Numbered from the stretch's first letter, positions 1-57,200 are shown. The stretch: 64,000 nt of DNA from a phage (GCA_009015555.1 GCA_009015555.1_3613.1); one strand, 5' to 3'. A program made the numbers and translations. Notes: generated by a model not told the origin, from the sequence alone.

Positions 1-63
1 TTACGCGATGCCGCAAAGGCCCGCCGGGCCGAACTGGAAACAATGATCAGCACTAAATGCTAA
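1..63 (+). CDS. 3' end of an upstream ORF (partial, runs off window start)
   Basis: Open frame 1 from position 1 to TAA at 61-63; followed by a promoter. Confidence 0.3.
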   Translation, partial: LRDAAKARRAELETMISTKC

Positions 64-71
64 AAATAAAG

Positions 72-101
72 TTGACGCCGGGAAGCGTTACGGGTTATAC
101 T
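72..101 (+). promoter_or_regulatory. sigma70-like promoter (TTGACG-18-TATACT)
   Basis: -35 TTGACG and -10 TATACT with 18-nt spacer upstream of first early ORFs. Confidence 0.5.
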
Positions 102-149
102 CTTTTCATCGGGTCACAACAGACCACAACAAACAAAGAGAGAAACAAA

Positions 150-227
150 ATGAGCGTAATCTTCCTGGTATCTGTTTTCGTAGCTATCGCATCCACAACC
201 GCAATTTGCATCAAAATGGGCTGGTAA
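150..227 (+). CDS. small hydrophobic peptide (25 aa, MSVIFLVSVFVAIASTTAICIKMGW)
   Basis: ATG with upstream AAAGAGAG; stop abuts ATG of next ORF; below track size cut-off. Confidence 0.3.
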   Translation: MSVIFLVSVFVAIASTTAICIKMGW

Positions 228-228
228 A

Positions 229-621
229 ATGACTACTTTCAACGCTTTACACCTCCGCGCCTTTATCGCTGGTTACTTTGAGGCGCTGTATTTTGCAGAA
301 TCCGCCACCGGGAACGATGGCGAAGAGATCGACAACCTCGCCGGGTATGAGTTGAGCGCCACGGCGAAAGAAGAGGGCGAACAGGCTTGCGCCCGCTTCC
401 TGGACTGGCACGGCGAAAAGGTAAATTTAGCCATTGCCGGATCGGATGACTACGATCACACGCAAGCGGGCCGCGATTTTTGGTTTACCCGCCAGGGGCA
501 CGGCGTCGGATTCTGGGATCGTGGCTTGGGTATGGTTGGCGATGACCTAAGCACGGCGGCGCGGTCATTTGGTGAAAAACATGTATTTATCGACGATGAC
601 GGATTGATCGGGGTAGAATGA
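229..621 (+). CDS. hypothetical early protein (130 aa)
   Basis: Track ORF; downstream of promoter; 4-nt overlap with next ORF. Confidence 0.6.
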   Translation: MTTFNALHLRAFIAGYFEALYFAESATGNDGEEIDNLAGYELSATAKEEGEQACARFLDWHGEKVNLAIAGSDDYDHTQAGRDFWFTRQGHGVGFWDRGLGMVGDDLSTAARSFGEKHVFIDDDGLIGVE

Positions 622-1082
622 TGAACCTTACAGATCTGAAATATTACGACGAACTGACACCCGGCGCACAGGCTGAAGCCCGGCGCAACGTCGCCGCCAG
701 TGTGCAGACCTACCACGGGCGGAATATTGGCAAAGCGTTTTTTAAGTTTCAGCGGGACCCGCACGGGGCGATCAATGACCCGCTACACATCCGCCGGATC
801 ATTAACGGCGGGGAAGCGTGGCGCAAGATCCGCCAGGAGGGCGACGCCTATCTAATCCGCTTCATTCGTTCGAACCGTGTGATCTTCACCCCTTGCGGCG
901 CTTATGTGGCGTATGTGGATAGCTTCACGATGTTTATTGATGGGTTGGAATACATACCCACAGCCGAACAACAAAAGGCGCTGAGAACGCCTTACATTGA
1001 CGTTAACGGGCGGGGGCCTGCCTTTCATGATTGGCTATACCGTATGCACCACAAAATAAAATTTTTCATGATCCGGGGTTGA
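618..1082 (+). CDS. hypothetical early protein (154 aa)
   Basis: Track ORF, ATGA overlap with upstream gene. Confidence 0.6.
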   Translation: MMNLTDLKYYDELTPGAQAEARRNVAASVQTYHGRNIGKAFFKFQRDPHGAINDPLHIRRIINGGEAWRKIRQEGDAYLIRFIRSNRVIFTPCGAYVAYVDSFTMFIDGLEYIPTAEQQKALRTPYIDVNGRGPAFHDWLYRMHHKIKFFMIRG

Positions 1083-1107
1083 CACCCGGCGCAATAGGGC
1101 CGATAAT
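1079..1107 (+). promoter_or_regulatory. sigma70-like promoter (TTGACA-17-GATAAT)
   Basis: Consensus -35 and near-consensus -10 with 17-nt spacer. Confidence 0.5.
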
Positions 1108-1160
1108 GTCTCTCATAGGGCGGGGAATGGTCCCCGGCCCAATGACCTGGAGTCAGTACA

Positions 1161-1412
1161 ATGGAAATCAAACACGTAATTTCTGCAAACGTCGCCGTTT
1201 TAGGTTCTGTAAGTGAAACCCGTGTGAGTCTGGCTAAATGGTGCGCCGCTCAAACTTTCGGGAGTTACGGCGAAAAGGTAACAGAGGTTAAGCGCTTGCT
1301 TTCCTTTGGTAACGTGGGCCGCAAGTTGTTAACAGAGGATATCGCCCGCCGGGTTGAGATCCATTATTCACTTGCTCAAATCATCGTAAAAGAGATCGAA
1401 AGCGCAATTTAA
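1161..1412 (+). CDS. hypothetical early protein (83 aa)
   Basis: Track ORF with GGAG upstream; followed by GC hairpin GGCCCC-GCAA-GGGGCC. Confidence 0.6.
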   Translation: MEIKHVISANVAVLGSVSETRVSLAKWCAAQTFGSYGEKVTEVKRLLSFGNVGRKLLTEDIARRVEIHYSLAQIIVKEIESAI

Positions 1413-1448
1413 CCCGGCCCGGCCCCGCAAGGGGCCAACAGAGGACAA

Positions 1449-1673
1449 ATGAGAATGATTATCAAAAACACTTTGGGCAAAACTGATTTTCTGCGCTCGC
1501 TGGAGATCGGCAAGCCGCAAGCCTGGTATTGTAAAAAGCTGGCGCATGATGAAATGAAAGATTTTACAGCCACGTTAACCCGTGTTAAAATCAGCATTAC
1601 CCAAAAGAAAGCGCTTTTAGTGATTGAGGGGCAGATCCCGCAAACCGTGATCATTGTTGAGAGGACCGCATAA
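1449..1673 (+). CDS. hypothetical early protein (74 aa)
   Basis: Track ORF, RBS AGAGGA upstream. Confidence 0.5.
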   Translation: MRMIIKNTLGKTDFLRSLEIGKPQAWYCKKLAHDEMKDFTATLTRVKISITQKKALLVIEGQIPQTVIIVERTA

Positions 1674-1674
1674 A

Positions 1675-1899
1675 ATGGGGGCCAATACTCGCAACCGCTA
1701 CGGCATAACGCGCCGTTTCGGGGTCTGCTATATGCTGGCAGATGATCCACAATATCGGGCCTTGCTGGAGGCTTACCAGGTCACCAAACTGGACGCCCAA
1801 AAGGGCCGGGCCGAACACGACGCCCACACCGCCAACATTAAAGCGCTTCACGACTTTTTAGCCGTCGCGGAAAAGCGTCACGACATCCGCCACAATTGA
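1675..1899 (+). CDS. hypothetical early protein (74 aa; start moved to in-frame ATG after RBS GAGAGG)
   Basis: Track ORF 1654..1899; internal ATG at 1675 has RBS and avoids overlap. Confidence 0.5.
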   Translation: MGANTRNRYGITRRFGVCYMLADDPQYRALLEAYQVTKLDAQKGRAEHDAHTANIKALHDFLAVAEKRHDIRHN

Positions 1900-1909
1900 G
1901 GGCCGAACC

Positions 1910-2104
1910 ATGATCACAGCTTCAGAGATCCGCCAAACGTTAGCCGCCTTGCGTTACCTTCACCGCCTGCGCCGGGAGAGTGATCCGACTTATGCCGGGT
2001 CATGCCTGGCGAAAGATGCCGAAAACGGGATCGCCACCCTGAAGGAATTAAACGACCGCATGAGGGATAGCGACCGATCCGACTTTATCGGGGGTGAAAT
2101 ATGA
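1910..2104 (+). CDS. hypothetical early protein (64 aa)
   Basis: Track ORF with RBS. Confidence 0.5.
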   Translation: MITASEIRQTLAALRYLHRLRRESDPTYAGSCLAKDAENGIATLKELNDRMRDSDRSDFIGGEI

Positions 2105-2409
2105 TCGCTTTATCGCCAATGGTTTTAGAATGGTATCGCCAGCAGATCGCGCCGCCGCTGGCTATCTTCAAAGAGGCCGAAAGCAAACAGCGCCGGATCT
2201 CCATTCATGAGATCATTACGCTTAACGCCGGGCAGAAAATGAATGTTTCCCGGTCCCACATGGGCAACACGTTAGCGCTTTTAAGTTTACGCCGCAAGCG
2301 TCAACGCCTAACCCTTGAATCACTCCGCATTATGGGACAGCCGCACCAGGTCACCGGGGATCGGATCGCCAGGGCATGGAACCGGGCAAACAGTCGAAAG
2401 GCTGGATGA
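2101..2409 (+). CDS. hypothetical early protein (102 aa)
   Basis: Track ORF; ATGA overlap with upstream ORF. Confidence 0.55.
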   Translation: MIALSPMVLEWYRQQIAPPLAIFKEAESKQRRISIHEIITLNAGQKMNVSRSHMGNTLALLSLRRKRQRLTLESLRIMGQPHQVTGDRIARAWNRANSRKAG

Positions 2410-2828
2410 ATTAACAGTGTTTACAGGGGTTGACTTGTTCGCCCCTTTTTTGTTATTCTTATGTCATGCGATGGCACCTGATGCAGGGGGAGACAAACAC
2501 CGGACCTGCCCGCTATTCAGGAAGGCAGACCGGACCTGGGCCGCGCCGGGCAGATGAGAATGATTATCATTTTCAACAAAATCAAATACATACTTTAAAA
2601 CCGTTGTCAAATTTATTTCCGTTTACTGTATAAATGTACATGCCCGCCAAACGCTCTAAATCGCGTTTTAAGCCGTTTTCCCCTTACCCGGTATCCTACA
2701 TCATAAAAATATAGATCTCCCGAAATCGGACTTTCGCACTTTTTGCCCTTGCAAACGTAAAATTTTTATGTTAGACCTGAAGGGCTGAAAGCCGGGTTTA
2801 CGTTGACAAAACTTTACAATTCTCCCTA

Positions 2829-2857
2829 TTGACGCCAGGAGGCGGATCGCTTATTCT
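2829..2857 (+). promoter_or_regulatory. sigma70-like promoter (TTGACG-17-TATTCT)
   Basis: -35/-10 pair ~50 nt upstream of ORF 2910; a second TTGACA lies 26 nt upstream. Confidence 0.35.
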
Positions 2858-2909
2858 TTACCACGTAGGGCGGCAATGACGCGACGGCCCACAGAGAGGA
2901 GACCGTAAA

Positions 2910-3281
2910 ATGAACCTGAACAATTTCAACCGCTACTACATCCGCGACGAACAGGCAAATGCTTTCGGGTATGATCGTTCGTTCGAAATGCAACAGCACG
3001 TAAACGGCGCAAAGTTACACGTTGAAACTGTTACCTTTGAAAACTATTTTATGGCGACCTTTGAAAGCGGCTTACAGATCTCTATTGAGTACAAAGGCGG
3101 CGTGATGACTCTCGCAACAGATGACAAATTACGCCGTAAAGATCTGTTATCACATCCGGGCTACGCAAGCAACAAAGCATTATTGATTAAAATCTATATC
3201 CGCTGGGTAGTGGGCCGCATCGCAACAGAAGAGGAGATCGCCGCCCTGGTAGATCTGGCCCTGAATCTGGATTTAAATTAA
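2910..3281 (+). CDS. hypothetical early protein (123 aa)
   Basis: Track ORF; RBS AGAGAGGAG. Confidence 0.6.
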   Translation: MNLNNFNRYYIRDEQANAFGYDRSFEMQQHVNGAKLHVETVTFENYFMATFESGLQISIEYKGGVMTLATDDKLRRKDLLSHPGYASNKALLIKIYIRWVVGRIATEEEIAALVDLALNLDLN

Positions 3282-3284
3282 TCG

Positions 3285-3313
3285 TTGACAAGGGGGCCGA
3301 AAGGCCCCATAAT
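3285..3313 (+). promoter_or_regulatory. sigma70-like promoter (TTGACA-17-CATAAT) with GGGGCC-GAAA-GGCCCC hairpin in spacer
   Basis: Consensus elements; same architecture repeated at 3673. Confidence 0.5.
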
Positions 3314-3358
3314 ACCCACTCAAGCAACAAACCACTAAAAACACTGGAGACCGTAAAA

Positions 3359-3670
3359 ATGACTAAATCAAAATTTTTCGAAATGCTGGATCGCTACCTG
3401 TCAAGCCATAACGAATGGGCGAAGTTAGGCAACGGCGGCAACGAATACACCGCCGCACAGTTAGAGGGCTATGTATTCCACGAAGATCCGGCCCGTTTGG
3501 CATCTTACAAAGAATCTGATCCGTCTTATCCGTGGGTTGCTCACGCTTCAGGCTTCACCCTTGCCGATTGTTGGCATGTTGAAGTGATGCAACACAAAAC
3601 AGCGGCAGCGGCAGAAAAGCAAGCTGAAATCTTCACCCGCTGGATCGAAGAGTACAAAAACAAAAAATAA
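3359..3670 (+). CDS. hypothetical early protein (103 aa)
   Basis: Track ORF with RBS GGAGA. Confidence 0.6.
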   Translation: MTKSKFFEMLDRYLSSHNEWAKLGNGGNEYTAAQLEGYVFHEDPARLASYKESDPSYPWVAHASGFTLADCWHVEVMQHKTAAAAEKQAEIFTRWIEEYKNKK

Positions 3671-3672
3671 TA

Positions 3673-3701
3673 TTGACTCAGGGGCCGAAAGGCCCCATAA
3701 T
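3673..3701 (+). promoter_or_regulatory. sigma70-like promoter (TTGACT-17-CATAAT) with GGGGCC-GAAA-GGCCCC hairpin in spacer
   Basis: Near-identical copy of promoter at 3285. Confidence 0.5.
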
Positions 3702-3735
3702 GCGATCTCACCCAACAAAACGGGATTAAGCCATA

Positions 3736-3981
3736 ATGAACCGCCTTTTTAAAATCAATCTTCCACTTTGGACCCTGGCGGCGGTCCTCATCGCGTTTTC
3801 TGGCGATACCGTAAACAACTGGATTTTATCCGCTGTACTCGGACCCGATCAAATGGTCACAACATTTTTAAACGCTTTCGGCGCTACACTGGCAACGGCC
3901 CGCCTGGCTTATCGTCGTAAATCCTTAAACCGTTATGATCTGGCGCTGGCACTGCCTGCCCTGGTTACCTGCCTTAACTAA
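3736..3981 (+). CDS. small membrane protein (81 aa)
   Basis: Track ORF; hydrophobic N-terminal segment; followed by terminator. Confidence 0.55.
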   Translation: MNRLFKINLPLWTLAAVLIAFSGDTVNNWILSAVLGPDQMVTTFLNAFGATLATARLAYRRKSLNRYDLALALPALVTCLN

Positions 3982-3998
3982 CATCATTCAGCCAAACA

Positions 3999-4029
3999 GG
4001 CCCGCCACCCCGGCGGGCTTTTCTTTTGT
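3999..4029 (+). terminator. rho-independent terminator
   Basis: GC-rich hairpin GGCCCGCC-ACCC-CGGCGGGC followed by TTTTCTTTT. Confidence 0.6.
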
Positions 4030-4299
4030 CCCCAACGTGGCAAGCCTGGAGGGCTACCCGGTCCGACTCCCCCAGTCAATAGCCCTTATCACTTCCATTT
4101 GTGGAAATCAACACTTAATTTTATTCACTTTAAAGCGCATAATTGAATAAACGAGGGGCTAACCCACTAGCCAGGGTTGAGAGTAGCGGCCCGCATAGGG
4201 CCTTACAGCGCGTTTTAGACCCTATTGACTTCTATCTGCAAACGTGTATCAGGCCAAAACTGACTAAATCACCTTTTCTTTACATAACTTGACACTATT

Positions 4300-4950
4300 T
4301 ATTCATTTATCTGCATAATGCGAGAATGATTCTCATTTACTATCAATAACTTAACTTTTTATTGACTTCTCAGAAAACACGGTTTTACGTTCCCACGGAT
4401 CAAGGGAGGGCGCGCCGGAGGCGCGACCAATAGAAAACAGGTAACGAACCCTCCCCCGTTGCTAGCTCGCAACGGTTTAGCGTTACGTTCCCACGGTCAA
4501 GGGATGACCGCTATCACCTGTTTTCTATTGGTCATTTGAAGGTGTAAACCTTCATAAAGTCAAGCCTTTTTAGTGCCTACAGGCACAAATACGAATTATT
4601 CTCATCTGCATAAAATCGTGTTTTATCTGCATAAATACGTAAACAGGCGGACCCGTACAGCGTAGCGGGGGCCGCATAGGCCCTACAGGGCAAGGGGCTT
4701 TATTGTGCGAAAAGTAAACGAAAGCGTAGCTTTTGCCTGGCAAAATTCACTCTTCGTGTCAAGCGAAAAATAATTTTTTTTTTCTTTTTGCGTAAACGAT
4801 AATGGTTCTCATCCGACAACCATTCTCAAAGGGCGAATGCGAATCATTCTCATTATCATGCCACAAGGTGAGTGAGACTCATTCTCATCTACGCCAGTGC
4901 TGGCGGGCCTCTCCACGTGTTGGGAATGATTATCATTATCCCGAGTGCGT
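4300..4950. repeat. array of imperfect palindromes built on ATTCTCAT / ATGAGAAT half-sites plus TTATCTGCATAA direct repeats
   Basis: At least six sites, e.g. GAGAATGATTCTCAT, AATGGTTCTCAT..AACCATTCTCA, TGAGACTCATTCTCAT, ATGATTATCAT; TCTGCATAA three times. Confidence 0.5.
4381..4535. repeat. nested repeat structure: 16-bp perfect inverted repeat (CCAATAGAAAACAGGT / ACCTGTTTTCTATTGG) flanking direct repeats TTACGTTCCCACGG(A)TCAAGGGA
   Basis: Read directly; additional GGGAGGG/CCCTCCC and GCGCGCC-GGA-GGCGCGC stems inside. Confidence 0.55.
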
Positions 4951-6169
4951 ATAAGGTGTATTATGTTAAATGGGGTATGGTGGCGTGATGCACAGTCGGA
5001 CCGATGAGTCAATAAGAGAAGTGTAAAGATGGGCAAGATGGTAGACATTTTGTGGAGATGATCACGTAAAGCGAGGGCCTACCCGGTCCGATTGAGGAAA
5101 AGCTGAGAGGGGCTAAGTCATTGATTCATAAGGATATTTGGGGAAAATAACGAGGCCCCTCCCCACCCCCTGATCGCCATGCCTGGCAGCAATATCCATA
5201 CGCTGAGATATTTTTCTGGTTTCTGGGCAAGAAGGGCCACCCCTGATCGCGTTCTAAAAATTTTGGCGGGAGGGTAAAAACACCAAAAAGTCAGGGTAGG
5301 TGAGCCTCTCCGGCTCCCTTGATATTTGGGCAATGTGGGAATACAGACGGGTACGTCTCTGTGGGACGGTTACTACCCGGCGGGAGAGGGCCTCCCGGAC
5401 GGGGTGGTGCACCAGCCTGTGGCACATGAGTTATGCACAGGTCTGCCTCTTTAGGCGACAGATGTGGCTCTACAGGTTTACCACTGTGGGAAACAAAATT
5501 GTGGGAGGGAGATACAAAAATACCGCCCGAAGGCGGTTTATAGATGAATTATTTGTCCACCGTGGCTCTCATATATCTTTCGGACAGACTCCAGATTTTG
5601 GGAGTATGTGGTCTCTGTGGGGCCATCCCTTAAAGAGGATGTACCGCAGGTTAGGATTTTCTTACACTCAAGCTCCGCCTTTGTTGCCATTCCGGGTGGG
5701 AACCGATATATGAACAATGGTGTAACCGTGTGGTCTGGATTGTTCCTCTGTAGTTGCCTTATCCTAATCTTTGGTGTGTGGGTAACACCAAACTTGATGC
5801 TCCCCTCACCGACATCAAGTATGTAGGCACAGTCAGGCGACATCCTGTTGGATCTTCGGGACACGACCGCCATTTTATCACGGACTGACAAGTCAACACC
5901 TGGGTTTCTGACTAGGCCCGGCACCAATATATCCGGGCACCTTTTCCTCTCGATCGCTGCCATCTTTTGACTCTGTTCTGAGTACCACTCGTTACCCGAG
6001 ATTGTTTTGTATTTGTTCATATGCGGCCCGCCGTGGGTAATACGCGATGTGTTTGATATTGTGGTGGGCGAGGAACATAGGTCCGACTCTCCAGGTGTGT
6101 TTTCATAAGTGTTCCTCTTTGGCATGTTTGGAATATGTGGGGAGTATACCTATGTTTGGGGAAGGGGTC

Positions 6170-6192
6170 AAGGGCCTTTCGGCCCTTTTTAT
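6170..6192 (+). terminator. rho-independent terminator (plus-strand orientation)
   Basis: Hairpin GGGCC-TTTC-GGCCC followed by TTTTTATA; on the minus strand no U-run follows. Confidence 0.45.
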
Positions 6193-6473
6193 AGGATTTC
6201 AAATTCCTTGCGGAACAGGTCACGCTGGTTGTTGATGAACACCCAGGATGCTACAGGGTGGTCTTCGGAGAAGTCGTCCTTCTCTACAGTGACCACATCG
6301 TATGGTGGGTATGTGAGTGCCTCTACCCGACTGTGGAATCGGTAGACCTTACCGACCACAAACCCGTACTCATTTCCCCTAAGACACCGGGCGGTGCCTA
6401 CGGAAGGGACAGGGCAGTACGCTGGCTTGTATGCCTTGGCCTTCTTGGGGACATTCCACTTATGCGCCGTCAT
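6189..6473 (-). CDS. hypothetical protein (94 aa); last gene of the leftward block
   Basis: Track ORF; ATGA overlap with upstream small ORF. Confidence 0.5.
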   Translation of the reverse strand: MTAHKWNVPKKAKAYKPAYCPVPSVGTARCLRGNEYGFVVGKVYRFHSRVEALTYPPYDVVTVEKDDFSEDHPVASWVFINNQRDLFRKEFEIL

Positions 6474-6613
6474 TCGATCGTCCTCCGTGCATAGTCATAA
6501 CCTTGCTGGAAGAAATCCCACAGGTCCTCAACGTAGGACTTATTGGGGTACTCTGACGGGTCCCAGCCTGTGTGCTCCTCAAAGTATTCGTTGAACTGCT
6601 CGCGTAGTGTCAC
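6470..6613 (-). CDS. small ORF (47 aa, GTG start, RBS GGAGG)
   Basis: Fills gap between two track ORFs with overlapping stop/start on both sides. Confidence 0.3.
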   Translation of the reverse strand: MTLREQFNEYFEEHTGWDPSEYPNKSYVEDLWDFFQQGYDYARRTIE

Positions 6614-6828
6614 AGGTAATCCTCCAACTTTTTGAGCCAGAAACCAGACAGGTCCCGGCGTCGTCTATCCACTGGGCCGCTATCCATGATCTGGTAGATA
6701 ACGCCGTCTCTCTGGTCCTCGAAGATACGCACGTCACAGTCCACATACAGATACCGCAGTTCTTTCTGTGTGAAGCCATACGTCGGATACCAGTCAGAGA
6801 CCTTGACCTCCGGAGGGACCTTAATCAT
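6610..6828 (-). CDS. hypothetical protein (72 aa)
   Basis: Track ORF. Confidence 0.5.
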   Translation of the reverse strand: MIKVPPEVKVSDWYPTYGFTQKELRYLYVDCDVRIFEDQRDGVIYQIMDSGPVDRRRRDLSGFWLKKLEDYL

Positions 6829-7184
6829 GAGGATGCCTTAAACCCGGCGTTCCAGCCGAAGTCGTAATCAGTTTTGGGATCACCGTTCGCGCCCTTGTAG
6901 CCGCCCGGCGGGCACTCACCCTCAAAGTGCTTCAGTGCGTCCACATACCCGATGTACCAGTCCTTGGGCTTGTCCTCTTTCGAGTACCAAGATTCGCGGA
7001 ATACGAACTCTCTCCACAGGTCTTGGATGACGGCGACGTGCTCCCGCTGGCAGCGGCTATACAGGTTGTTCCTGCCGTTGTACAGCATGTCAAAGACACG
7101 CTGCTCCAGCGCTGCCTCTTCGTCACTGTTCGGGATAATCGGATTGTACCCGGCATACGGGCTTCGGTCTTCGGTATTTTCCAC
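6825..7184 (-). CDS. hypothetical protein (119 aa)
   Basis: Track ORF; 4-nt overlap with downstream ORF. Confidence 0.55.
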   Translation of the reverse strand: MENTEDRSPYAGYNPIIPNSDEEAALEQRVFDMLYNGRNNLYSRCQREHVAVIQDLWREFVFRESWYSKEDKPKDWYIGYVDALKHFEGECPPGGYKGANGDPKTDYDFGWNAGFKASS

Positions 7185-7217
7185 AGAAACTCCTTAGTTA
7201 TCAACAGGTTCGCCACT

Positions 7218-7502
7218 TCAGGCAGGGTACTGATGGGACTCGACAGGCTCCATGACTACCACCAATTGTTGGCCCACACCGCTTATGGTACGGTAGCGCA
7301 CGGAGCGCTCCGGCAGGGGAGGGCGGTTCTGTTCCAGTTGGTGGACCAGTTGGTAGATTTCCTCTTCCGTTGCCGGGCGGCATTCCATCCGGTATCCCAT
7401 GTTGGGAACGAGCGCGGAGGCCATAACCTCTGCCACGATGTGCTCCGGCACGATGGCGGCTACCATGCCGTCCCGGTCTACGATTGCATACGGAACACCC
7501 AT
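7218..7502 (-). CDS. hypothetical protein (94 aa)
   Basis: Track ORF. Confidence 0.5.
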   Translation of the reverse strand: MGVPYAIVDRDGMVAAIVPEHIVAEVMASALVPNMGYRMECRPATEEEIYQLVHQLEQNRPPLPERSVRYRTISGVGQQLVVVMEPVESHQYPA

Positions 7503-7503
7503 A

Positions 7504-7659
7504 CTAACCTCTCTTCAGCCATTGATCACGATTTTCCCAGATGCGTTCTGCGGCTTGTTCAGCCCAGCGCCTGTCCAGGTAACGCTCGAAGTAATACCCC
7601 GCCACCCCTGCGGCGATGATCAGCAGGAACCCACCGACGATTACGATGCCGGGAGTCAT
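7504..7659 (-). CDS. small membrane protein (51 aa, MTPGIVIVGGFLLIIAAGVAGYYFERY...)
   Basis: ATG overlaps stop of upstream ORF (ATGA); stop abuts next start; single TM helix. Confidence 0.35.
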   Translation of the reverse strand: MTPGIVIVGGFLLIIAAGVAGYYFERYLDRRWAEQAAERIWENRDQWLKRG

Positions 7660-7850
7660 GCGTCCACCAAACGGCGTCCAAACGCCGCTATGTCGTCTTC
7701 ATTTGCCAAACGGATAGTCGTAGACACCAGCAGGAATCTGTCCCAGTAGCGGGCCACTGAGCGGGCCATAACGATGTTATGCACCAAGGCCAACGGGTTC
7801 CCGTTGATGTCCTCGATAATGTGCGGGGCGTTCATTTCTTCAATAGTCAT
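7656..7850 (-). CDS. hypothetical protein (64 aa)
   Basis: Track ORF. Confidence 0.45.
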   Translation of the reverse strand: MTIEEMNAPHIIEDINGNPLALVHNIVMARSVARYWDRFLLVSTTIRLANEDDIAAFGRRLVDA

Positions 7851-8064
7851 CGTACCAATCTCCTTGCAGTTCCGCCAGCCGGGCGGTGTCGGATTTAATT
7901 CGGCGTTGCAGAGTACAGATTTCCCGGATGCGGGCCTCTTCAGGCGTTTCTATCGGGAACTCATGCACCAACCCTGTCGAGGACAGGCGCAGTTCTGTAC
8001 GGTGCCCGTTAGGGTACTGGATTATACGGACGCCCTGGTCCCACAAATCACGGTTCTTGCTCAT
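7840..8064 (-). CDS. hypothetical protein (start uncertain; track ORF extends to 8172)
   Basis: Track ORF; N-terminal 36 codons are Cys-rich low-complexity, internal ATG chosen. Confidence 0.35.
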   Translation of the reverse strand: MSKNRDLWDQGVRIIQYPNGHRTELRLSSTGLVHEFPIETPEEARIREICTLQRRIKSDTARLAELQGDWYDDY

Positions 8065-8289
8065 AGACCCATCCAGACCGCAATGGCACAAGGGGCGAAT
8101 AGCAGGGCTACAATGGCCCATGACACATATGCGTACCATGCAGGCCACAAAAGATAATCGCAGTTCTCCCATTCAGTGTTAGGGTTGTTGATCATTTGCC
8201 CTCCTCTCAGTGACTACCGTGCCCCAGGCACAGTTCCCCGTACAGGAATACCGCGCCAGCAACGCAGGCCATGAACAAACAAAAGCCCA

Positions 8290-8472
8290 TCATTCCAGAA
8301 TACCTCGCTTCACGCCTTCACGGCACAGTTCCACAACCACCAGGGCAGCGGAGCTATCCTTGCCGAGGCACAGGGCCATCTTACGCATCAGTGGCAGCGT
8401 GGACAGGATAACAGAGTCCTCCAGGCGGCTGATAGTCTCACGAATTTGTTCAATAGGTACTCGCTTTTCCAT
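8290..8472 (-). CDS. hypothetical protein (60 aa; start at internal ATG preceded by GAGGAG)
   Basis: Track ORF 8290..8502; RBS lies inside the first 10 codons. Confidence 0.4.
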   Translation of the reverse strand: MEKRVPIEQIRETISRLEDSVILSTLPLMRKMALCLGKDSSAALVVVELCREGVKRGILE

Positions 8473-8573
8473 AGTCTTCTCCTCTTCAGTTGATAAGGTC
8501 AATATACACCCATATGTTTACGCTGTAAACATGTTTCGGGGCATATGTCGAAAAAAGTTCATTCCATAAACAT

Positions 8574-8598
8574 GAAAACCGCCCGGATGGGCGGTTGC
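8574..8598 (-). terminator. rho-independent terminator
   Basis: Hairpin ACCGCCC-ATCC-GGGCGGT then U-run on minus strand. Confidence 0.45.
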
Positions 8599-8601
8599 GT
8601 T

Positions 8602-8814
8602 TTATTTGCGGAAGATTTGTACCGGGGTCGGCACGTAATGACTCTGCGGGTTCAGGGGGTGACGGTAGCAATCGAAATCCTCCGGGTTGTCGTTAGACTT
8701 CAGGATCACTTCACGAACCAGCGGCAGGCTGGTAAACAAACCCCAGTCCACATCGGTCTGTCCCATCTCTCCACGCATACTTACGTGGAATAGTTGGTAA
8801 ACGTATGCTTTCAT
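8602..8814 (-). CDS. hypothetical protein (70 aa)
   Basis: Track ORF. Confidence 0.5.
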   Translation of the reverse strand: MKAYVYQLFHVSMRGEMGQTDVDWGLFTSLPLVREVILKSNDNPEDFDCYRHPLNPQSHYVPTPVQIFRK

Positions 8815-8815
8815 C

Positions 8816-9286
8816 TCACTCTCCGTATTTTGCTTTCAGGCGGGCCAACTGGGCACGTTCCTCAGCCTCACGACGTTCAGCCGCCTGCTGCTCTGCTTTC
8901 TCCGCACGAAGTCGTTGCGCCTCCCGGTGATCAACCAGACGGGCATCATACTTACGCTTGGCGAGGATCTCTGCATCTTCCAGCATCAACTGACGTTCAG
9001 CCGAGTATTTCTCATACCCCTCGTCGGAGATTTCGTCAACCGCATAAGATGTACCGAAGTACCCGTTGATGCCCAAAGTGATGTCGGCCCCGGCAGTGAA
9101 CTCGTAATCCTTGTTCAGGCTACGATCCTGGGCCACAGTGTCCAGATAGATGGCGTGGGCCAGCAACTCAATAGCCTGTTCACGATCCTGAGTTGACTGA
9201 ATCGTCATGTCACTGTCAGTGCGGCCTTCACAGTAGCCGCCACGGTAGACGGCATCGTTTTCACGGTAAGAAATAATTGTGTACAT
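8816..9286 (-). CDS. hypothetical protein with charged coiled-coil C-terminus (start at ATG with RBS AGGGG)
   Basis: Track ORF 8816..9307; C-terminal RLRAEKAEQQAAERREAEERAQLARLKAKYGE. Confidence 0.55.
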   Translation of the reverse strand: MYTIISYRENDAVYRGGYCEGRTDSDMTIQSTQDREQAIELLAHAIYLDTVAQDRSLNKDYEFTAGADITLGINGYFGTSYAVDEISDEGYEKYSAERQLMLEDAEILAKRKYDARLVDHREAQRLRAEKAEQQAAERREAEERAQLARLKAKYGE

Positions 9287-9489
9287 TAGAACCCCTGTTT
9301 TGTCCAAGGTAGTGGAATACGTAACTGCCCGATTGTAAACTCCCTGCCAGGATACTCAGCAGCCAAAACCGTCAGGTTGAGTGCAGCAGCCTGCATGGAT
9401 TTATAAATGTGGAAGTGTCCGTCGATACAAACAATTCCGTCATTTCCTTTCTGCTTTATCGCAAAAGCATCATGGTAACCGCCAGCCAT
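9286..9489 (-). CDS. hypothetical protein
   Basis: Track ORF 9286..9522; internal ATG with RBS GGGGGA chosen. Confidence 0.45.
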   Translation of the reverse strand: MAGGYHDAFAIKQKGNDGIVCIDGHFHIYKSMQAAALNLTVLAAEYPGREFTIGQLRIPLPWTKQGF

Positions 9490-9490
9490 A

Positions 9491-9766
9491 TCATCCCCCA
9501 CAATATTTGTTAACTGGTTCACCGTCGATGTCTAAATCGGTGATTACGTGCTTAGGTCCAGTATAGTCCTCTGCCAGTTTCTTTGCAACCCTTTTTGCTT
9601 CTTCCAAGGTTTCAAAATCCTTGATGTCGGGGTCGCCGTGGGAGTAATGCTGCTGGACATACTGCCAGAAGGGCCACCAGAAGCCACGATTGTACTTCAC
9701 CCGGTAATACTCAACCACACGCCCGTTGGCGTAGGTCTTCACATTTTTCTCGATAAGAATCTTCAT
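9491..9766 (-). CDS. hypothetical protein (91 aa)
   Basis: Track ORF. Confidence 0.5.
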   Translation of the reverse strand: MKILIEKNVKTYANGRVVEYYRVKYNRGFWWPFWQYVQQHYSHGDPDIKDFETLEEAKRVAKKLAEDYTGPKHVITDLDIDGEPVNKYCGG

Positions 9767-10122
9767 TCAAACATCCCCTCCATATCGTTCTCGTAGATGT
9801 GATCCCGGATAGCCTCTGCGGTAGCTTTGATGCTGTCCTTGTGGGCATGGATAAGAGTCTTGAACATGTCCACCTTGCCCGGCAGACCAGCAAGCTGCGC
9901 CTTGTTGGCTGCGGCCCTAAAAACACCCATGCAGTGCATGTCATACCCCCAGGGTGTATACAGCCGGAGGAGTTCGGGGAACTCGTCCTTGATCATGTCC
10001 TCAAAATTGTAATATTTCGACTCCCAATACCCGAACATCATCAAATTACCGATATTCCGGCGGAGGGTTTCGTTAGTCTTTGCCATTTCAAGCAACAATT
10101 CAATTGCAGATTTTTCGATCAT
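9763..10122 (-). CDS. hypothetical protein (start at ATG with RBS GGAGG)
   Basis: Track ORF 9763..10140. Confidence 0.5.
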   Translation of the reverse strand: MIEKSAIELLLEMAKTNETLRRNIGNLMMFGYWESKYYNFEDMIKDEFPELLRLYTPWGYDMHCMGVFRAAANKAQLAGLPGKVDMFKTLIHAHKDSIKATAEAIRDHIYENDMEGMFE

Positions 10123-10245
10123 TTTGCCTCCTAAGTGCAATTATTTTGCGGTTTTGTGCAGAAAAGTGCCGGAATTTTGACTTTTACGTGCAAAAACGGC
10201 ACATTTTTACCTGATTTGTGTAAAATACATGAAAACTGTCAAAAA

Positions 10246-10473
10246 TCAACTCTTTTTGATGAATTGGTATCCCGGCGCTTTCAAAAAGGCGATTTGTTTT
10301 TGTACCTGGTCCAGCAAGAAAGATGACCACTCAGGGTAAACTGTTTCGAAGAAAGCCATCTCTTCCTTGTCATACAGGAAGGAATCGCTCAATTGGTGAA
10401 CAAAATCTATCACCTCTTCAGGGCAAAATACTGCCACAGTACCCTCTTCAAGCTCCAATTCAAGTATTTTCAT
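10246..10473 (-). CDS. short member of paralogous family (motif EEMAFFETVYPEW)
   Basis: Track ORF; shares C-terminal module with ORFs 14538-16834. Confidence 0.5.
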   Translation of the reverse strand: MKILELELEEGTVAVFCPEEVIDFVHQLSDSFLYDKEEMAFFETVYPEWSSFLLDQVQKQIAFLKAPGYQFIKKS

Positions 10474-10724
10474 ATGGCTACGAACCCATCCTCGTTCATC
10501 AGGACGTGGTTCGGTGCCCAGAAGTTGTGCCGGGACTCAAGCCACAGGTAGAATCGACGCTTACTTGACAGCGGATGCGGCTCTGTCTCGTAGGAAACGA
10601 GGGCCGTGCGGCCCTTATTCTTCCCACGGAGGATTCGTACACGCTGATCCTTTTTCCACTGGGATGGCACCCGTGGCGAATCGTAACACTTAGGCAGACA
10701 TTCCATGATATGGCCCCTTTCCAC
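10470..10724 (-). CDS. hypothetical protein (84 aa)
   Basis: Track ORF; ATGA overlap. Confidence 0.45.
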   Translation of the reverse strand: MERGHIMECLPKCYDSPRVPSQWKKDQRVRILRGKNKGRTALVSYETEPHPLSSKRRFYLWLESRHNFWAPNHVLMNEDGFVAI

Positions 10725-11205
10725 AGAATTTTTCCCAAAGTGCAGAGTCTATCCCGTGCAAGCCGGGCAGCAACTCCACCACCTGAGTCGTTATGCCCGG
10801 GTACAGAAACTCCAGCATCTCCAGTTCTTCGTTCTGGATGTCACGACAATCCAAGAAGAAGTCTGTCATCTTCACCGGGGATTGCCATACCTTTCCGACA
10901 CGACGCTTCAGGAACACATCCCCATCAGGCATCGCCATCCAAGAGATCCGGTCCAGCTTTCCGGTTGTGGAAATACTGAAGTGTCTCGGAGTGGAGGTGA
11001 CTGTCCCACCAAGGTATGGACCAATATCGAAACGAAACTTAATGGCAGGTTTGCCGACATTCTGAACCACACGATTGTCCTTGCGGTAGCCGCCATTTCC
11101 TGTAAAGATCAGGTTCCCGACGTATTTACGCCGAGTTAGATCTCGCCATGTCCACTCTTTAAACAGTTTGTGCAGGGTGGTCTTAGTCATCCGTGGAATC
11201 ATCAT
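10690..11205 (-). CDS. hypothetical protein (start at MM with RBS GGAGG)
   Basis: Track ORF 10690..11313. Confidence 0.45.
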   Translation of the reverse strand: MMIPRMTKTTLHKLFKEWTWRDLTRRKYVGNLIFTGNGGYRKDNRVVQNVGKPAIKFRFDIGPYLGGTVTSTPRHFSISTTGKLDRISWMAMPDGDVFLKRRVGKVWQSPVKMTDFFLDCRDIQNEELEMLEFLYPGITTQVVELLPGLHGIDSALWEKFCGKGPYHGMSA

Positions 11206-11413
11206 TTTCCTCCGGCAGGATCTCGAATTTTGCAACACCCAGTACCACCACGTGACCCAGAGACAGGACACCTGTCCACGGAGAGCCGTCACGCTTGGGC
11301 CGGGTCCCTTCAACGTCGCAGAAGCCGTTTTTAAGCTCCGAAGCAGTGAAGATCTGCCCCTTTGGAAACACTTTGTTGAAGTCGGTAATCACGTTCGTAC
11401 ATTTCAGCTTCAC
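11183..11413 (-). CDS. hypothetical protein (76 aa)
   Basis: Track ORF; long overlap with neighbour lowers confidence. Confidence 0.3.
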   Translation of the reverse strand: MKLKCTNVITDFNKVFPKGQIFTASELKNGFCDVEGTRPKRDGSPWTGVLSLGHVVVLGVAKFEILPEENDDSTDD

Positions 11414-11681
11414 GATTCATCCCCTCGTATTCAATAGCCACGGCTTTTTGCCACTCTTCTGCGTTTGGTTCCAGTGCCTGAGCCACAAGGCAGGCTCTGG
11501 TCCTCAGGTCTTCAGAAAACTTCCCTGTAGCAACAGTCTCACAACTGATGGCTGTGACCTCTGCGTTGAGTTCCTTACTCACGAAACCTTTGTAATACAT
11601 ATCCCGGGCCTGAAGAACAATGGCCTCCCACAGGTGCCAGTGCATATCGTCCACGTGTATCATATAACTATGGTCTCCCAC
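11331..11681 (-). CDS. hypothetical protein (116 aa)
   Basis: Track ORF. Confidence 0.45.
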   Translation of the reverse strand: MGDHSYMIHVDDMHWHLWEAIVLQARDMYYKGFVSKELNAEVTAISCETVATGKFSEDLRTRACLVAQALEPNAEEWQKAVAIEYEGMNREAEMYERDYRLQQSVSKGADLHCFGA

Positions 11682-11884
11682 TTGAAAAATTTACCAAACG
11701 GCCCATCAACCTCAACCTCATAACTGGCCTCCAAGCTCGTTCCTACCTCCCGGTAAGCATGGATACGGATATCTACCCTATACCTCTCCATGCCGCAGGG
11801 GAATCTGAACTTAATCTCCCTTTTAATCAGATCCGTTATCCCACCGCACTCCGCGACGGGTTTTCTCCACGGCGTTGTCTTCAT
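11660..11884 (-). CDS. hypothetical protein (74 aa)
   Basis: Track ORF. Confidence 0.45.
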   Translation of the reverse strand: MKTTPWRKPVAECGGITDLIKREIKFRFPCGMERYRVDIRIHAYREVGTSLEASYEVEVDGPFGKFFKWETIVI

Positions 11885-11934
11885 AAGTCACCTCCAGGGC
11901 CAGTATACACGAACATCATCGGATTGCAAGCAAT

Positions 11935-11962
11935 AAAAAACCGCCCGAAGGCGGTTGTTTTT
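11935..11962 (-). terminator. rho-independent terminator (hairpin usable in both directions)
   Basis: AAAAAACCGCCCGAAGGCGGTTGTTTTT. Confidence 0.5.
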
Positions 11963-12073
11963 AAAGAGGGGCGATGTCCGACTCAGGAACTTCCTGAACA
12001 ACAGGCCGACCACCGATCTTCACCTCGACGTACCAGTTTTCGGTGTCAGCAACCGGAGCGAGAGTTTTGCCCA

Positions 12074-14483: not shown

Positions 14484-14537
14484 TCTTCTCTCCTCTGTTG
14501 TTTGATAGGACCCATCATACAGGGTCCTGTGTCAATG

Positions 14538-14996
14538 TCAATCGTTTTCGAAAGCATTTAATGCCTGAAGCTCTTTCCAGGCGGCAATCCATGCCTGCTT
14601 TATCTTGGCGTACTCTTTAGGATGAGCAACTTCCAGTAATCGAAGCTCGTCCCGAGTTACGTGCCTGTCGTCCTCGAAGAACTCCATAGCCTCATCAGAG
14701 AGGTAAGCCGTAAAGACGATCTCTTTGAACTTTATCGTCCTGTTCCTCGACGTCGGAGGATCTACGATGACCTGGGTTCCAGTTGTTGTGATAGTCGGGG
14801 CCGGGGTATTCATGACCTCCCTCATAATCCTTTCCCACTCCCGGGCCTTGATATCGGACGGGGAGGGGGTCCAAGGTTGGTGAATGTTCGGCGGGATGTT
14901 GCCATCCCCAATTCTCCACGGCCCGCCAATCCCAGTTGTCTCATTACCCATCAATGAAGAATTGATGTGTTCCTTCAGGCTCTTATGTTCACTCAT
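14538..14996 (-). CDS. paralog family member (Gly-rich N-terminal part; C-terminal ...KQAWIAAWKEL)
   Basis: Track ORF; shared motifs with neighbours. Confidence 0.55.
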   Translation of the reverse strand: MSEHKSLKEHINSSLMGNETTGIGGPWRIGDGNIPPNIHQPWTPSPSDIKAREWERIMREVMNTPAPTITTTGTQVIVDPPTSRNRTIKFKEIVFTAYLSDEAMEFFEDDRHVTRDELRLLEVAHPKEYAKIKQAWIAAWKELQALNAFEND

Positions 14997-30355: not shown

Positions 30356-30425
30356 TGTTTTCTCCTTTTCTCTAAACTTGCGGTCCATTATACGGATGCC
30401 GGACCAAGTGTCAATACCCTAAGAC

Positions 30426-45905: not shown

Positions 45906-45959
45906 CAACTTCTCCTTTTCTGTTTCAGTGGGGCCATTATACATGACCCCGTTACACTG

Positions 45960-46400
45960 TCAACGACTTTTGTAAATCTTTTCTGCTTCTTCCCGGCGAC
46001 GTTCGTCACGGGCCTTCCTTTCGATGGCACACGCTTCCCGGTAGGCTTTCCGCCGGGCACCGCAGATACCTTCGACCAGACGCAGAACGCGATCCTGCTC
46101 CCAACGGTTCATCCAGTCGAGATCCCCGGAGACAACAGGGGAGCCGTGGAAGTTGTCACGGTAAAGGTACGTCTTCACCTTCCGTTCGTGGTCGAGGATC
46201 ACATAGTCCACAAAGTGGCTACAGCGGTCTCGGTCCGCTTGCGATGGGTTGTCGTACACTTCCAGCTTTTTGGCAGCGATCAATTCGAGAATCCGATTGA
46301 CCGGGGGCCGGGTCATGCGCCTTGGTGTCACGTACTTATCCCATGCCCATACGAGGACCAGAAGAATAAACAAACTTGTGCAGACCCAGAATCCCGTCAT
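45960..46400 (-). CDS. membrane-anchored hypothetical protein
   Basis: Track ORF; N-terminal TM helix. Confidence 0.55.
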   Translation of the reverse strand: MTGFWVCTSLFILLVLVWAWDKYVTPRRMTRPPVNRILELIAAKKLEVYDNPSQADRDRCSHFVDYVILDHERKVKTYLYRDNFHGSPVVSGDLDWMNRWEQDRVLRLVEGICGARRKAYREACAIERKARDERRREEAEKIYKSR

Positions 46401-55477: not shown

Positions 55478-55553
55478 GCTGGATTAGCTCAGTAGGTAGA
55501 GCGCCTCACTTGTAATGAGGATGTCGCGGGTTCGATTCCTGCATCCAGCACCA
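55478..55553 (+). tRNA. tRNA-Thr (anticodon TGT)
   Basis: Cloverleaf by hand: acceptor GCTGGAT/ATCCAGC, loop CTTGTAA, T-loop GGTTCGATTCC, encoded CCA. Confidence 0.8.
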
Positions 55554-55559
55554 GATCAT

Positions 55560-55636
55560 GCAACGTTGCCGGAGTCTGGTAACGGCTCTCGCTGCAAACG
55601 AGATGAGCACTGGTTCGAATCCAGTACGTTGCTCCA
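55560..55636 (+). tRNA. tRNA-Cys (anticodon GCA)
   Basis: Acceptor GCAACGT/ACGTTGC, loop CTGCAAA, T-loop GGTTCGAATCC, CCA. Confidence 0.8.
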
Positions 55637-55637
55637 A

Positions 55638-55714
55638 GCGCCTTTGGTCCAATTGGTAGAGGCACTACATTCAAAATGTAGGGGTTCCCAGTTCGAATCT
55701 GGGAAGGCGCACCA
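55638..55714 (+). tRNA. tRNA with Leu anticodon CAA but short (5-nt) variable arm; identity uncertain
   Basis: Acceptor GCGCCTT/AAGGCGC, anticodon stem CTACA/TGTAG, loop TTCAAAA, T-arm CCCAG-TTCGAAT-CTGGG, A73, CCA. Confidence 0.55.
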
Positions 55715-55730
55715 AAATTTATGTAACCTA

Positions 55731-55759
55731 TTGACATAGTGTAATTATACTGCTAATAT
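55731..55759 (+). promoter_or_regulatory. sigma70-like promoter (TTGACA-17-TAATAT)
   Basis: Consensus -35, good -10, upstream of ORF 55786. Confidence 0.5.
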
Positions 55760-55785
55760 GGATACACTAATTCAATGGGGGCATT

Positions 55786-56160
55786 ATGAGCAAGGCTGCG
55801 ATTGTAACTCGTAAGCGTGGTCGCCCAAGCAAAGAAGAGAGCACAGCAATCGCCCTTGAAAAGGCAATGCTTGATCTCCGAGGCGAATTGGCCCGTCTGA
55901 CGCCGAAGGCCATTCATACTCTCGAAAACCTGCTCACAACAGGCACAGAGAAAGTGAAGGAAACCACGGCGAAGTATATCCTTGAGCAGGCGAAAGAGGT
56001 TAACAACCTCTATACTGAAGAGGATAACGAAGACGACGCAGCAGGCGGCACAACATCTGCCTCTTCTGAAACTCACGCTGGTTCTTCTGACGAGATGAAA
56101 AATGCCATCCCGTTGACAACCCAGATTCGTGAGTATAAAGCAGTAGGCGAAGATGATTAA
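55786..56160 (+). CDS. small basic/acidic protein with AT-hook-like RKRGRPSK motif
   Basis: Track ORF; own promoter and terminator inside tRNA cluster. Confidence 0.55.
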   Translation: MSKAAIVTRKRGRPSKEESTAIALEKAMLDLRGELARLTPKAIHTLENLLTTGTEKVKETTAKYILEQAKEVNNLYTEEDNEDDAAGGTTSASSETHAGSSDEMKNAIPLTTQIREYKAVGEDD

Positions 56161-56163
56161 CTG

Positions 56164-56190
56164 GAAGGCTCCCGAAGGAGCCTTTATTAG
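56164..56190 (+). terminator. rho-independent terminator
   Basis: AGGCTCC-CGAA-GGAGCCT then TTTATT. Confidence 0.5.
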
Positions 56191-56325
56191 AAGTTCTCTT
56201 TTGACGGGCACTTGTTAACGACCCGCAGAATGACGACGGTGTACAACGGCGTTTGATGGCGAGGAAGGTCTATAGGGATCAGCGCAGATCCTTGGATGTC
56301 AGGTGAGCCGTACAAAAGAGAATTT

Positions 56326-56413
56326 GGGGAGTTATTTCCGTAGAGGTAGCGGTGCAGACTGTAAATCTGTTGTCATTGCGACTCGGGTGGTTCGACTCCA
56401 TCACTCCCCACCA
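56326..56413 (+). tRNA. tRNA-Tyr (anticodon GTA), long variable arm
   Basis: Loop CTGTAAA, variable arm GTCATTGCGACTC, T-loop GGTTCGACTCC, CCA. Confidence 0.8.
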
Positions 56414-56419
56414 AATTAT

Positions 56420-56514: not shown

Positions 56515-56518
56515 GACC

Positions 56519-56836: not shown

Positions 56837-56945
56837 ATTTGGTTCCGACAAGGTGACGGCGCACCCCGGAGCGACGCTGAAAGATGCAGGCCGACGAACA
56901 CATACGTGTACTTAATCAATAGTCATTGCGATGGCTATTCGTTAA

Positions 56946-57193: not shown

Positions 57194-57200
57194 CTTCAAA

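Follow-up and report, generated by a model that had tools for sequence, protein, structure and literature searches.

Promoter-early stem-loops (PeSLs) are composite elements described in the T4-like phages RB49/phi1, PST/T4 and nt-1/KVP40 (Arbiol et al. 2010, PMC2839356; Comeau et al. 2014, PMC4122927). The promoter and terminator activities of the RB49/phi1 PeSLs were demonstrated by lacZ fusions, and these elements recombine with each other (PMC2839356; PMC4122927). In RB49, PeSL promoters reached ~13,000 Miller units and termination was comparable to that of rrnB T1, while the formation of mini-circles through recombination of one PeSL with another was shown for RB49/phi1 only (PMC2839356). 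For phages of the genus Certrevirus, a sigma70-like early promoter, AAAA(N3-4)TGTTGAC(N17-19)TATAAT, has been published (Buttimer et al. 2020, PMC7344957); it was reported at 21 sites in CR3 and CR8 and at 13 in CR9 and CB7, mainly among short early open reading frames (ORFs). That study covers the same promoters that concern us here, but it describes only the -35 box, the -10 box and the UP element, and mentions neither a hairpin or stem-loop nor a link to gene shuffling. Here we describe two promoter cassettes with a hairpin in the spacer, at 3285-3313 (cassette 1) and 3673-3701 (cassette 2), on the plus strand of a 64,000-nucleotide stretch of phage DNA (GCA_009015555.1), hereafter the window. 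The window belongs to Certrevirus (Vequintavirinae), is ~96% identical to Cronobacter phage CR3, and has its position 1 at approximately CR3 position 88,294. By analogy with PeSLs, we consider it probable that both sites are PeSL-type cassettes, each of which would promote strong early transcription, attenuate read-through RNA or provide it with a 3'-end hairpin, and offer a patch of homology for gene shuffling. The PeSL kind itself and the Certrevirus promoter consensus were already known; the PeSL-type design in Certrevirus appears to be new, and a literature search for a link between PeSLs and Vequintavirinae or rV5-like phages found none.

The two cores, TTGACAAGGGGGCCGAAAGGCCCCATAAT (3285-3313) and TTGACTCAGGGGCCGAAAGGCCCCATAAT (3673-3701), are identical at 26 of 29 positions, the differences being confined to positions 6-8. 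Cassette 1 consists of the -35 box TTGACA (3285-3290), a 17-nt spacer and the -10 box CATAAT (3308-3313), and cassette 2 of TTGACT (3673-3678), a spacer of the same length and CATAAT (3696-3701). Inside each spacer, direct inspection of the plus strand reveals the 16-nt hairpin GGGGCC-GAAA-GGCCCC (3293-3308 and 3681-3696), whose final C doubles as the first base of the -10 hexamer. A first-pass annotation made from the sequence alone had pointed to two near-identical promoters with this hairpin in the spacer, and the sequence is just as it described. A promoter scan scored cassette 1 at 11 and cassette 2 at 10 of 12 consensus matches, both near the top of the first 10 kb. Upstream of the -35 box, cassette 1 has an UP-element-like stretch of 75% A+T (3265-3284, plus strand) that fits the 5' part of the published genus consensus, AAAA(N3-4)TGTTGAC (PMC7344957), and the 20 nt upstream of the cassette 2 -35 box are 90% A+T. 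The order of parts is fixed: an upstream stop codon, the AT-rich stretch, a sigma70 -35/-10 pair with a 6-bp G+C hairpin in its 17-nt spacer, and a leader with a ribosome-binding site. The hairpin begins 11-12 nt past the upstream stop codon. Allowing up to two mismatches, the hairpin 16-mer occurs three times in the window where 0.07 occurrences are expected, and none of 100 shuffles reached three.

As judged by sequence comparison, the hairpin is a real and non-random feature under selection for base pairing. Among 150 unique promoter-like sites, 33 carry a perfectly paired stem of 6 bp or longer between TTGAC and ATAAT, compared with a mean of 1.1 and a maximum of 5 when the spacers are shuffled, an enrichment of ~30-fold. 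Covariation was measured on 72 unique 29-mers that were picked by promoter criteria only and not for hairpins. In the register of the window hairpin, 58.1% of the cells in this set are paired against 49.3% in shuffles (0 of 500), and covariation scores 0.312, compared with 0.211 in shuffles (0 of 500); the signal clearly peaks at the correct register. At the orthologues of cassette 1 in Certrevirus and in Mydovirus VIK251, the two promoter boxes and the two stem arms do not vary, and changes fall in the loop and in the three nucleotides between the -35 box and the stem. Across promoters, at least three stem families are in use (GGGGCC/GGCCCC, GCCGGG(A)/(T)CCCGGC and CGGCCC/GGGCCG), and stem types have been exchanged between orthologous sites. 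Since stems are invariant or covary while loops and linker bases change, pairing is the conserved trait, rather than a particular sequence or a GNRA loop, as far as these alignments indicate. The first-pass annotation had spoken of a GNRA hairpin, but a GNRA loop is not conserved: loops run from 3 to 9 nt and are variable in sequence, with GATA, ACCT, GGAAA, GGGTTA, GACGATA and others in relatives beside the GAAA of the window. A strand bias is nonetheless visible among the unique 4-nt loops: GNRA is read in 5 of 11 on the sense strand, but in none on the antisense strand.

The position of the 3' arm is nearly fixed as well. This arm directly adjoins the -10 box in the two stem families seen most often and is 1-2 nt away from it in the GCCGGG family, irrespective of loop length; a longer loop instead shifts the 5' arm towards the -35 box. 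This register of the 3' arm is the spacing needed by a terminator-like arrangement of a hairpin followed by a weak hybrid.

We scanned the whole CR3 genome (joined from three pieces) with a single simple promoter rule and recovered 14 promoters whose spacer holds a G+C hairpin of six pairs, 13 of them in the plus-strand array of small hypothetical genes at 80.9-92 kb. A spacer hairpin had been called unusual in the first-pass annotation; with 14 such promoters in CR3, it is not unusual for this phage group. With the early regions of CR9, phiTE, KaOmega, P7_Pc, CR8, F1M1E, POP15 and PcCB7V scanned, ~70 such promoters were counted across ten relatives. The site orthologous to cassette 1 is conserved in CR9, P7_Pc, KaOmega, POP15, F1M1E, two IMG/VR contigs and Mydovirus VIK251, and cassette 2 is identical in CR3, CR8 and PcCB7V, with a single A.C mismatch in the stem in P7_Pc. 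Nearly all promoters of this kind, hairpin-bearing or hairpin-free, have a same-strand gene upstream. None of the 43 promoter-like sites at 70-120 kb of rV5 has a G+C-rich spacer hairpin, and since spacer hairpins are lacking from these 50 kb, the trait is not subfamily-wide. A strict pattern of the cassette was found in only 11 stretches of IMG/VR, mostly on Certrevirus-sized contigs, and had one exact match in 596 Gb of bacterial and archaeal genomes; with a single match in so much sequence, the cassette is not a host element. As a positive control, the same scan on the RB49 region with PeSL206/205 and PeSL211/210 recovered the same architecture, for example TTGACAGGGGATCggtGATCCCCTATAAT and TTGACGCGGGGAgaaaTCCCCGCTATAAT.

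Several further observations concern these promoters. The lone match in the bacterial and archaeal genomes, TTGACTATGGGGCCAAGTGGCCCCATAAT (L031, 2374-2402), lies on a 180-kb contig of a metagenome-assembled genome of an uncultured deltaproteobacterium. Outside the window, a hairpin promoter at CR3 80,515 on the minus strand, conserved in CR9, KaOmega and phiTE, faces leftwards into a ~1-kb gap without annotated genes inside the plus-strand early array; its conserved leader contains ACAGGAGAGGAGACGCCACCCCACGGCGAAAAGGCGG, and a non-coding RNA or a gene missed in annotation may be transcribed from this promoter. Two kindred leader motifs, beginning CATAGGGCGGGGAATGG and CATAGCGACGCACACCGCG, lie 3' of many hairpin promoters in CR3, CR9, KaOmega and phiTE. 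A stable stem-loop, CAUAGGGCGGGGAAUGGUCCCCGGCCC, likewise occupies the start of the transcript predicted from a related promoter at 1079-1107 (stem-loop at 1114-1145, plus strand; -19.8 kcal/mol for 1114-1165), and such leader stem-loops and motifs may be 5'-end stabilizers. The hexamer GGGCCC, an ApaI-type site, is wholly absent from the window (28 expected) and from CR3 (70 expected), and CCWGG and CGCG are under-represented. This looks like restriction-site avoidance, and the arms GGGGCC/GGCCCC and CGGCCC/GGGCCG do avoid GGGCCC.

A second promoter class accompanies the spacer-hairpin promoters. In it, a near-perfect TTGACA is followed by a 16-nt spacer and a TATAAT-like -10 box that sits in the loop of a G+C-rich inverted repeat, as in GGGGTC-atgtataat-GGCCCC and AGGACCC-tgtatgat-GGGTCCT. 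The window has two such sites on the minus strand (45930-45963 and 14507-14541; 0.14 expected) and a weaker one, also on the minus strand, at 30376-30414, and CR3 has eight (0.54 expected). The class is also found in RB49, where our scan returned promoters with a repeat overlapping the -10 box.

A third copy of the hairpin lies at 6171-6186, reading AGGGCC-TTTC-GGCCCT and then TTTTTATAGG on the plus strand. The first-pass annotation had listed 6170-6192 as a related hairpin that forms a plus-strand terminator. The T run it relied on is present, and a stem-loop followed by a U tract occurs at 6171-6192 on the plus strand only, but the element is better read on the minus strand as another hairpin-plus-promoter cassette. 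That cassette 3 (6143-6191) comprises a stop codon at 6191-6189, the hairpin at 6186-6171, the -35 box TTGACC at 6171-6166, a 17-nt spacer and the -10 box TATACT at 6148-6143. On this strand the hairpin is AGGGCC-GAAA-GGCCCT, again with a sense-strand GAAA loop, and it overlaps the -35 box by one base, a variant position. The TTTTT that follows the hairpin on the plus strand is the complement of the A run upstream of cassette 3. Two minus-strand ORFs flank the cassette, at 6473-6189 upstream and 6125-5538 (195 amino acids) downstream, and it is kept in CR9, KaOmega, F1M1E and the IMG/VR relative L020. The element at 6171-6186 is thus a third promoter-associated copy, beyond a plus-strand terminator alone, and the whole of 6170-6192 is possibly a bidirectional terminator.

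Comparison among close relatives places the cassettes at the boundaries of exchanged modules. Upstream of cassette 1, CR3 and CR8 have an unrelated ORF in place of the window's Gp30.7-like gene; homology is lost at 2912 and returns at 3284, the base preceding the -35 box. In F1M1E the upstream gene is different again, unrelated to these, and its junction falls at the -35 box and hairpin. Conversely, L020 shares cassette 1 and has a different downstream ORF, homology breaking at 3370 and resuming at 3732. Cassette 2 is itself subject to presence and absence: all of it lies in a region (3660-3733, plus strand) that aligns as a 63-nt gap, and the block comprises the AT-rich stretch, the -35 box, the hairpin, the -10 box and the leader or 5' untranslated region (5' UTR). 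This block is present in the window, CR3, CR8, P7_Pc and PcCB7V and absent from CR9, KaOmega and F1M1E, in which the two flanking genes share TAATG as an overlap. When the early region of CR3 is compared with three relatives, 12 of 38 homology break points fall no more than 15 nt from a cassette, where random positions would give 3.7.

How would such a cassette work? Host RNA polymerase would read the near-consensus sigma70 -35/-10 pair. Because the hairpin lies upstream of the start of its own promoter, it exists as RNA only in transcripts begun further upstream. Such read-through RNA would fold into the hairpin, directly followed by the A/U-rich sequence of the -10 box, AUAAU, and the two together could attenuate transcription or leave a protected 3' end on the upstream message. 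The overlapping promoter would then re-initiate, making each small early gene a semi-insulated unit. In addition, the ~60-nt cassette (63 nt for the cassette 2 block) may serve as a homology patch through which recombination swaps, inserts or deletes the flanking genes. The architecture, the selection for pairing, the multiplicity in the genus, the location of break points and the build shared with RB49 PeSLs can be read from the sequences, and the RB49/phi1 experiments suggest by analogy that promoter activity, attenuation and recombination via the cassettes would accompany them.

Folding was predicted both for RNA and for single-stranded DNA. In a 69-nt context, the two sites fold as RNA at -16.8 and -18.2 kcal/mol (z = -1.9 and -3.9), with the hairpin as the dominant and centroid structure, and the 29-mers alone fold at ~-14.7 kcal/mol. 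As single-stranded DNA, the sites reach -7.9 and -8.0 kcal/mol (z = -3.2 and -3.5), the hairpin again being dominant, and values are similar for either DNA strand (-7.3 to -8.1 kcal/mol, z ~ -3). A role at the RNA level is favored because the 3' arm is nearly fixed at the -10 box, because GNRA loops are biased to the sense strand, and because the RB49 stem-loop was active in a reporter though it also lacks a U tract. A search of window positions 1-12000 against Rfam 15, with E up to 1, returned two weak matches, neither plausibly related to the cassettes. The first-pass annotation had also proposed an RNase III recognition site. RNase III needs double-stranded RNA of about two helical turns (~20 bp); the stem has 6 bp, no helix of greater length is predicted in the 69-nt context, and an RNase III processing site is therefore ruled out.

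Several points weigh against reading the sites as PeSL-type cassettes. Cassettes 1 and 2 have the stem of an intrinsic terminator, followed by the tails AUAAUACC and AUAAUGCG with no U tract; 23 of 27 unique hairpins have just 2-3 T within 8 nt past the stem; and a terminator scan called neither hairpin. The same scan placed a canonical intrinsic terminator, with a 9-bp stem and then TTCTTTTGT, at 3998-4030 on the plus strand, where it closes the plus-strand array. With no U tract at the cassettes and a separate terminator that, by contrast, has one, full termination at each cassette is unlikely. Two promoters of the same family in the window have poor hairpins and are conserved nonetheless: TTGACGCCGGGAAGCGTTACGGGTTATACT (72-101, plus strand) has a decayed spacer hairpin, akin to the GCCGGGA/TCCCGGC stem family of relatives, and TTGACACCCGGCGCAATAGGGCCGATAAT (1079-1107, plus strand) a weak one, akin to the CGGCCC/GGGCCG family. 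The enrichment of break points near cassettes cannot be told apart from a preference for intergenic junctions in general, and the relatives compared are not independent. Stem mismatches (three G.U and two A.C) are too few to tell action as sense RNA from action as DNA. PeSLs have been defined only in T4-like phages, and, this phage being of a different lineage, the resemblance could have arisen by convergence. Finally, a literature search for Vequintavirinae transcriptomes found none. The first-pass suggestion of an attenuator that preserves promoter function therefore fares unevenly: the published PeSL model, the same architecture and the selection on pairing make it a plausible analogy, and the missing U tract and the silent terminator scan count against its terminating part.

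The same missing U tract would suit an account in which the hairpin is only a stabilizer of RNA 3' ends or a barrier to processing and not a terminator, with 3'-to-5' exonucleases trimming upstream messages back to it and the hairpin thereby setting their half-life. The separate canonical terminator at the end of the array, the location of a hairpin stable as RNA 11-12 nt past the upstream stop codon, and the sense-strand GNRA bias are also as this account would have it. Nevertheless, a comparable RB49 stem-loop without a U tract cut expression of a downstream reporter as strongly as rrnB T1 (PMC2839356), and a mere stabilizer does not need a 3' arm held almost fixed at the -10 box, so that we regard pure stabilization as unlikely, if worth keeping in mind. 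The inverted repeat might instead be a DNA operator at which a dimeric phage or host protein shuts off the early promoters. The dyad symmetry of GGGGCC-N4-GGCCCC within the core promoter, its place between -35 and -10, a classical position for a repressor, and the identical copies at several promoters would be expected of an operator. Yet three arm sequences are used within one promoter array, arm distances of 3-9 nt would rotate the half-sites relative to each other, and the arms covary so that pairing is kept. Because arm sequence and spacing vary while pairing is kept, an operator for a dimeric protein is very unlikely, and we identified no candidate regulator. The protein recognition site proposed in the first-pass annotation meets the same difficulty, a sequence-specific dimer fitting poorly with three stem sequences and such variable arm spacing.

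Structure formed in the DNA itself has to be considered as well: a cruciform or hairpin extruded in supercoiled DNA could alter the geometry of the -35/-10 pair and so act as a supercoil-sensitive switch, or serve as a target for structure-specific recombination. Both DNA strands fold stably at the energies given above, and a GAAA loop closed by C-G, as in the window, is said to be a very stable DNA mini-hairpin motif in the work of Hirao et al. The promoter class that brackets the -10 box with an inverted repeat is not explained by RNA termination, and phage N4 uses extruded hairpins of 5-7 bp as promoters. Set against this, loops are not conserved, six base pairs are short for extrusion, and RB49 PeSL promoters are strong on plasmids, leaving a DNA-level device of this kind highly improbable. 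A broader version, in which the repeat acts mainly in DNA as an extrudable hairpin that makes the cassettes recombinogenic and mobile between Krischvirus T4-likes and Certrevirus, strikes us as quite unlikely; under it, the early promoters might also be supercoiling-sensitive, and this device would have a variant in the class that brackets the -10 box. Last, the hairpin could be functionless, its copies recent duplications of one promoter that carry the palindrome passively. Cassettes 1 and 2 do share 26 of 29 bases, and copies in one genome are often identical, as gene conversion would yield. But stems are preserved in both Certrevirus and Mydovirus although loops and neighboring bases change, pairing is maintained by different stem sequences, hairpins are enriched ~30-fold, and RB49 has the same design, and we therefore think a hairpin without function almost certainly the wrong explanation.

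The PeSL-type cassettes stand at the end of a plus-strand array of small genes, the window holding the last part of a CR3-type array. The ORF upstream of cassette 1 (2910-3281, plus strand, 123 amino acids) belongs to the T4 Gp30.7 family (Pfam PF06919, E = 1.3e-43), and its TAA stop codon (3279-3281) ends 3 nt before the -35 box. Between the two cassettes lies an ORF of 103 amino acids without a Pfam match (3359-3670, plus strand; stop codon at 3668-3670), preceded by a Shine-Dalgarno sequence, GGAG (3346-3349, plus strand), in a 5' UTR that is unstructured by prediction. Downstream of cassette 2, an ORF of 81 amino acids (3736-3981, plus strand), also without a Pfam match, is the final gene of the plus-strand early array. 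The records of rV5 and phiTE list several small ORFs that resemble T4 or RB49 hypothetical proteins, and small accessory genes seem to be common to T4-like phages and Vequintavirinae. A tblastn search with the three flanking proteins gave no match in RB49 100-150 kb, and thus no direct sign of an exchange of these particular genes with RB49; the Gp30.7-family gene in particular has no homologue there.

Beyond the array, 4020-5500 forms a gap between the plus- and minus-strand arrays where transcription converges. It is 80-93% identical in all relatives, including phiTE, and few genes, if any, are annotated in it; in CR9 none lies between the counterparts of window positions 3670 and ~5600. Rfam gave no match in this gap, which may hold unannotated small genes or a non-coding RNA. 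Elsewhere in the window, 18 transfer RNA genes are clustered at 55478-59024 on the plus strand, as in CR3.

If the cassettes act as PeSLs do in RB49, they would account for the expression of dozens of small early genes, each from an insulated unit of its own, and for the mosaicism of the early region, which exceeds that of any other part of these genomes. With one composite design recurring in two unrelated groups of large lytic phages, PeSLs would be a more general solution than a T4 peculiarity, or else a shared mobile module. These phages are used in biocontrol and therapy, and their annotation currently misses the hairpins. Cassettes flag likely recombination points, and they are compact candidate parts for engineering that could serve as strong promoters and insulators.

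Among other known systems, intrinsic terminators share with cassettes 1 and 2 a G+C-rich stem of 6-7 bp and a 4-nt loop placed just past a stop codon, but the cassettes continue with AUAAUAC or AUAAUGC, which provide only 2-3 U in 8 nt. The promoters of the phage N4 virion RNA polymerase are extruded DNA hairpins with stems of 5-7 bp, and they resemble the cassettes in having a short stem and a small loop as part of a phage early promoter. In N4, the extruded DNA is what a phage-encoded polymerase recognizes, and there are no -35/-10 boxes, whereas here the hairpin lies inside an ordinary sigma70 promoter. Certrevirus phages encode no RNA polymerase (PMC7344957). With the morons of lambdoid phages, the genes of the array share small size, an accessory nature, organization as self-contained transcription units, and gain or loss between relatives. 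Morons are not flanked by conserved repeats, and exchange is not attributed to their flanks (PMC2839356); here, promoter and hairpin overlap in one repeated cassette.

PeSLs remain the closest match, with differences in lineage, stem sequence and kind of evidence. The phage belongs to Vequintavirinae (Certrevirus) and not to the T4-like Straboviridae; the stems are GGGGCC/GGCCCC, GCCGGG/CCCGGC and CGGCCC/GGGCCG, unlike the GGGGAT(C)/(G)ATCCCC of RB49; and the promoter, terminator and mini-circle activities of RB49/phi1 were shown by experiment, while the Certrevirus cassettes are known from sequence. In their build and setting, the cassettes are like PeSLs. Cassettes 1 and 2 have a near-consensus sigma70 promoter with the two boxes ~17 nt apart and an AT-rich stretch upstream, and a stem-loop of a G-run and a C-run lies mostly between -35 and -10 and touches the -10 box. 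A stop codon precedes each (3279-3281 and 3668-3670), and a Shine-Dalgarno sequence and start codon follow (GGAG at 3346-3349; starts at 3359 and 3736). Like PeSLs, the cassettes occur in many copies clustered among small genes of unknown function (13 of 14 in the CR3 array), are tied to insertions, deletions and replacements between close relatives, and come with another subclass, whose repeat overlaps or brackets the -10 box.

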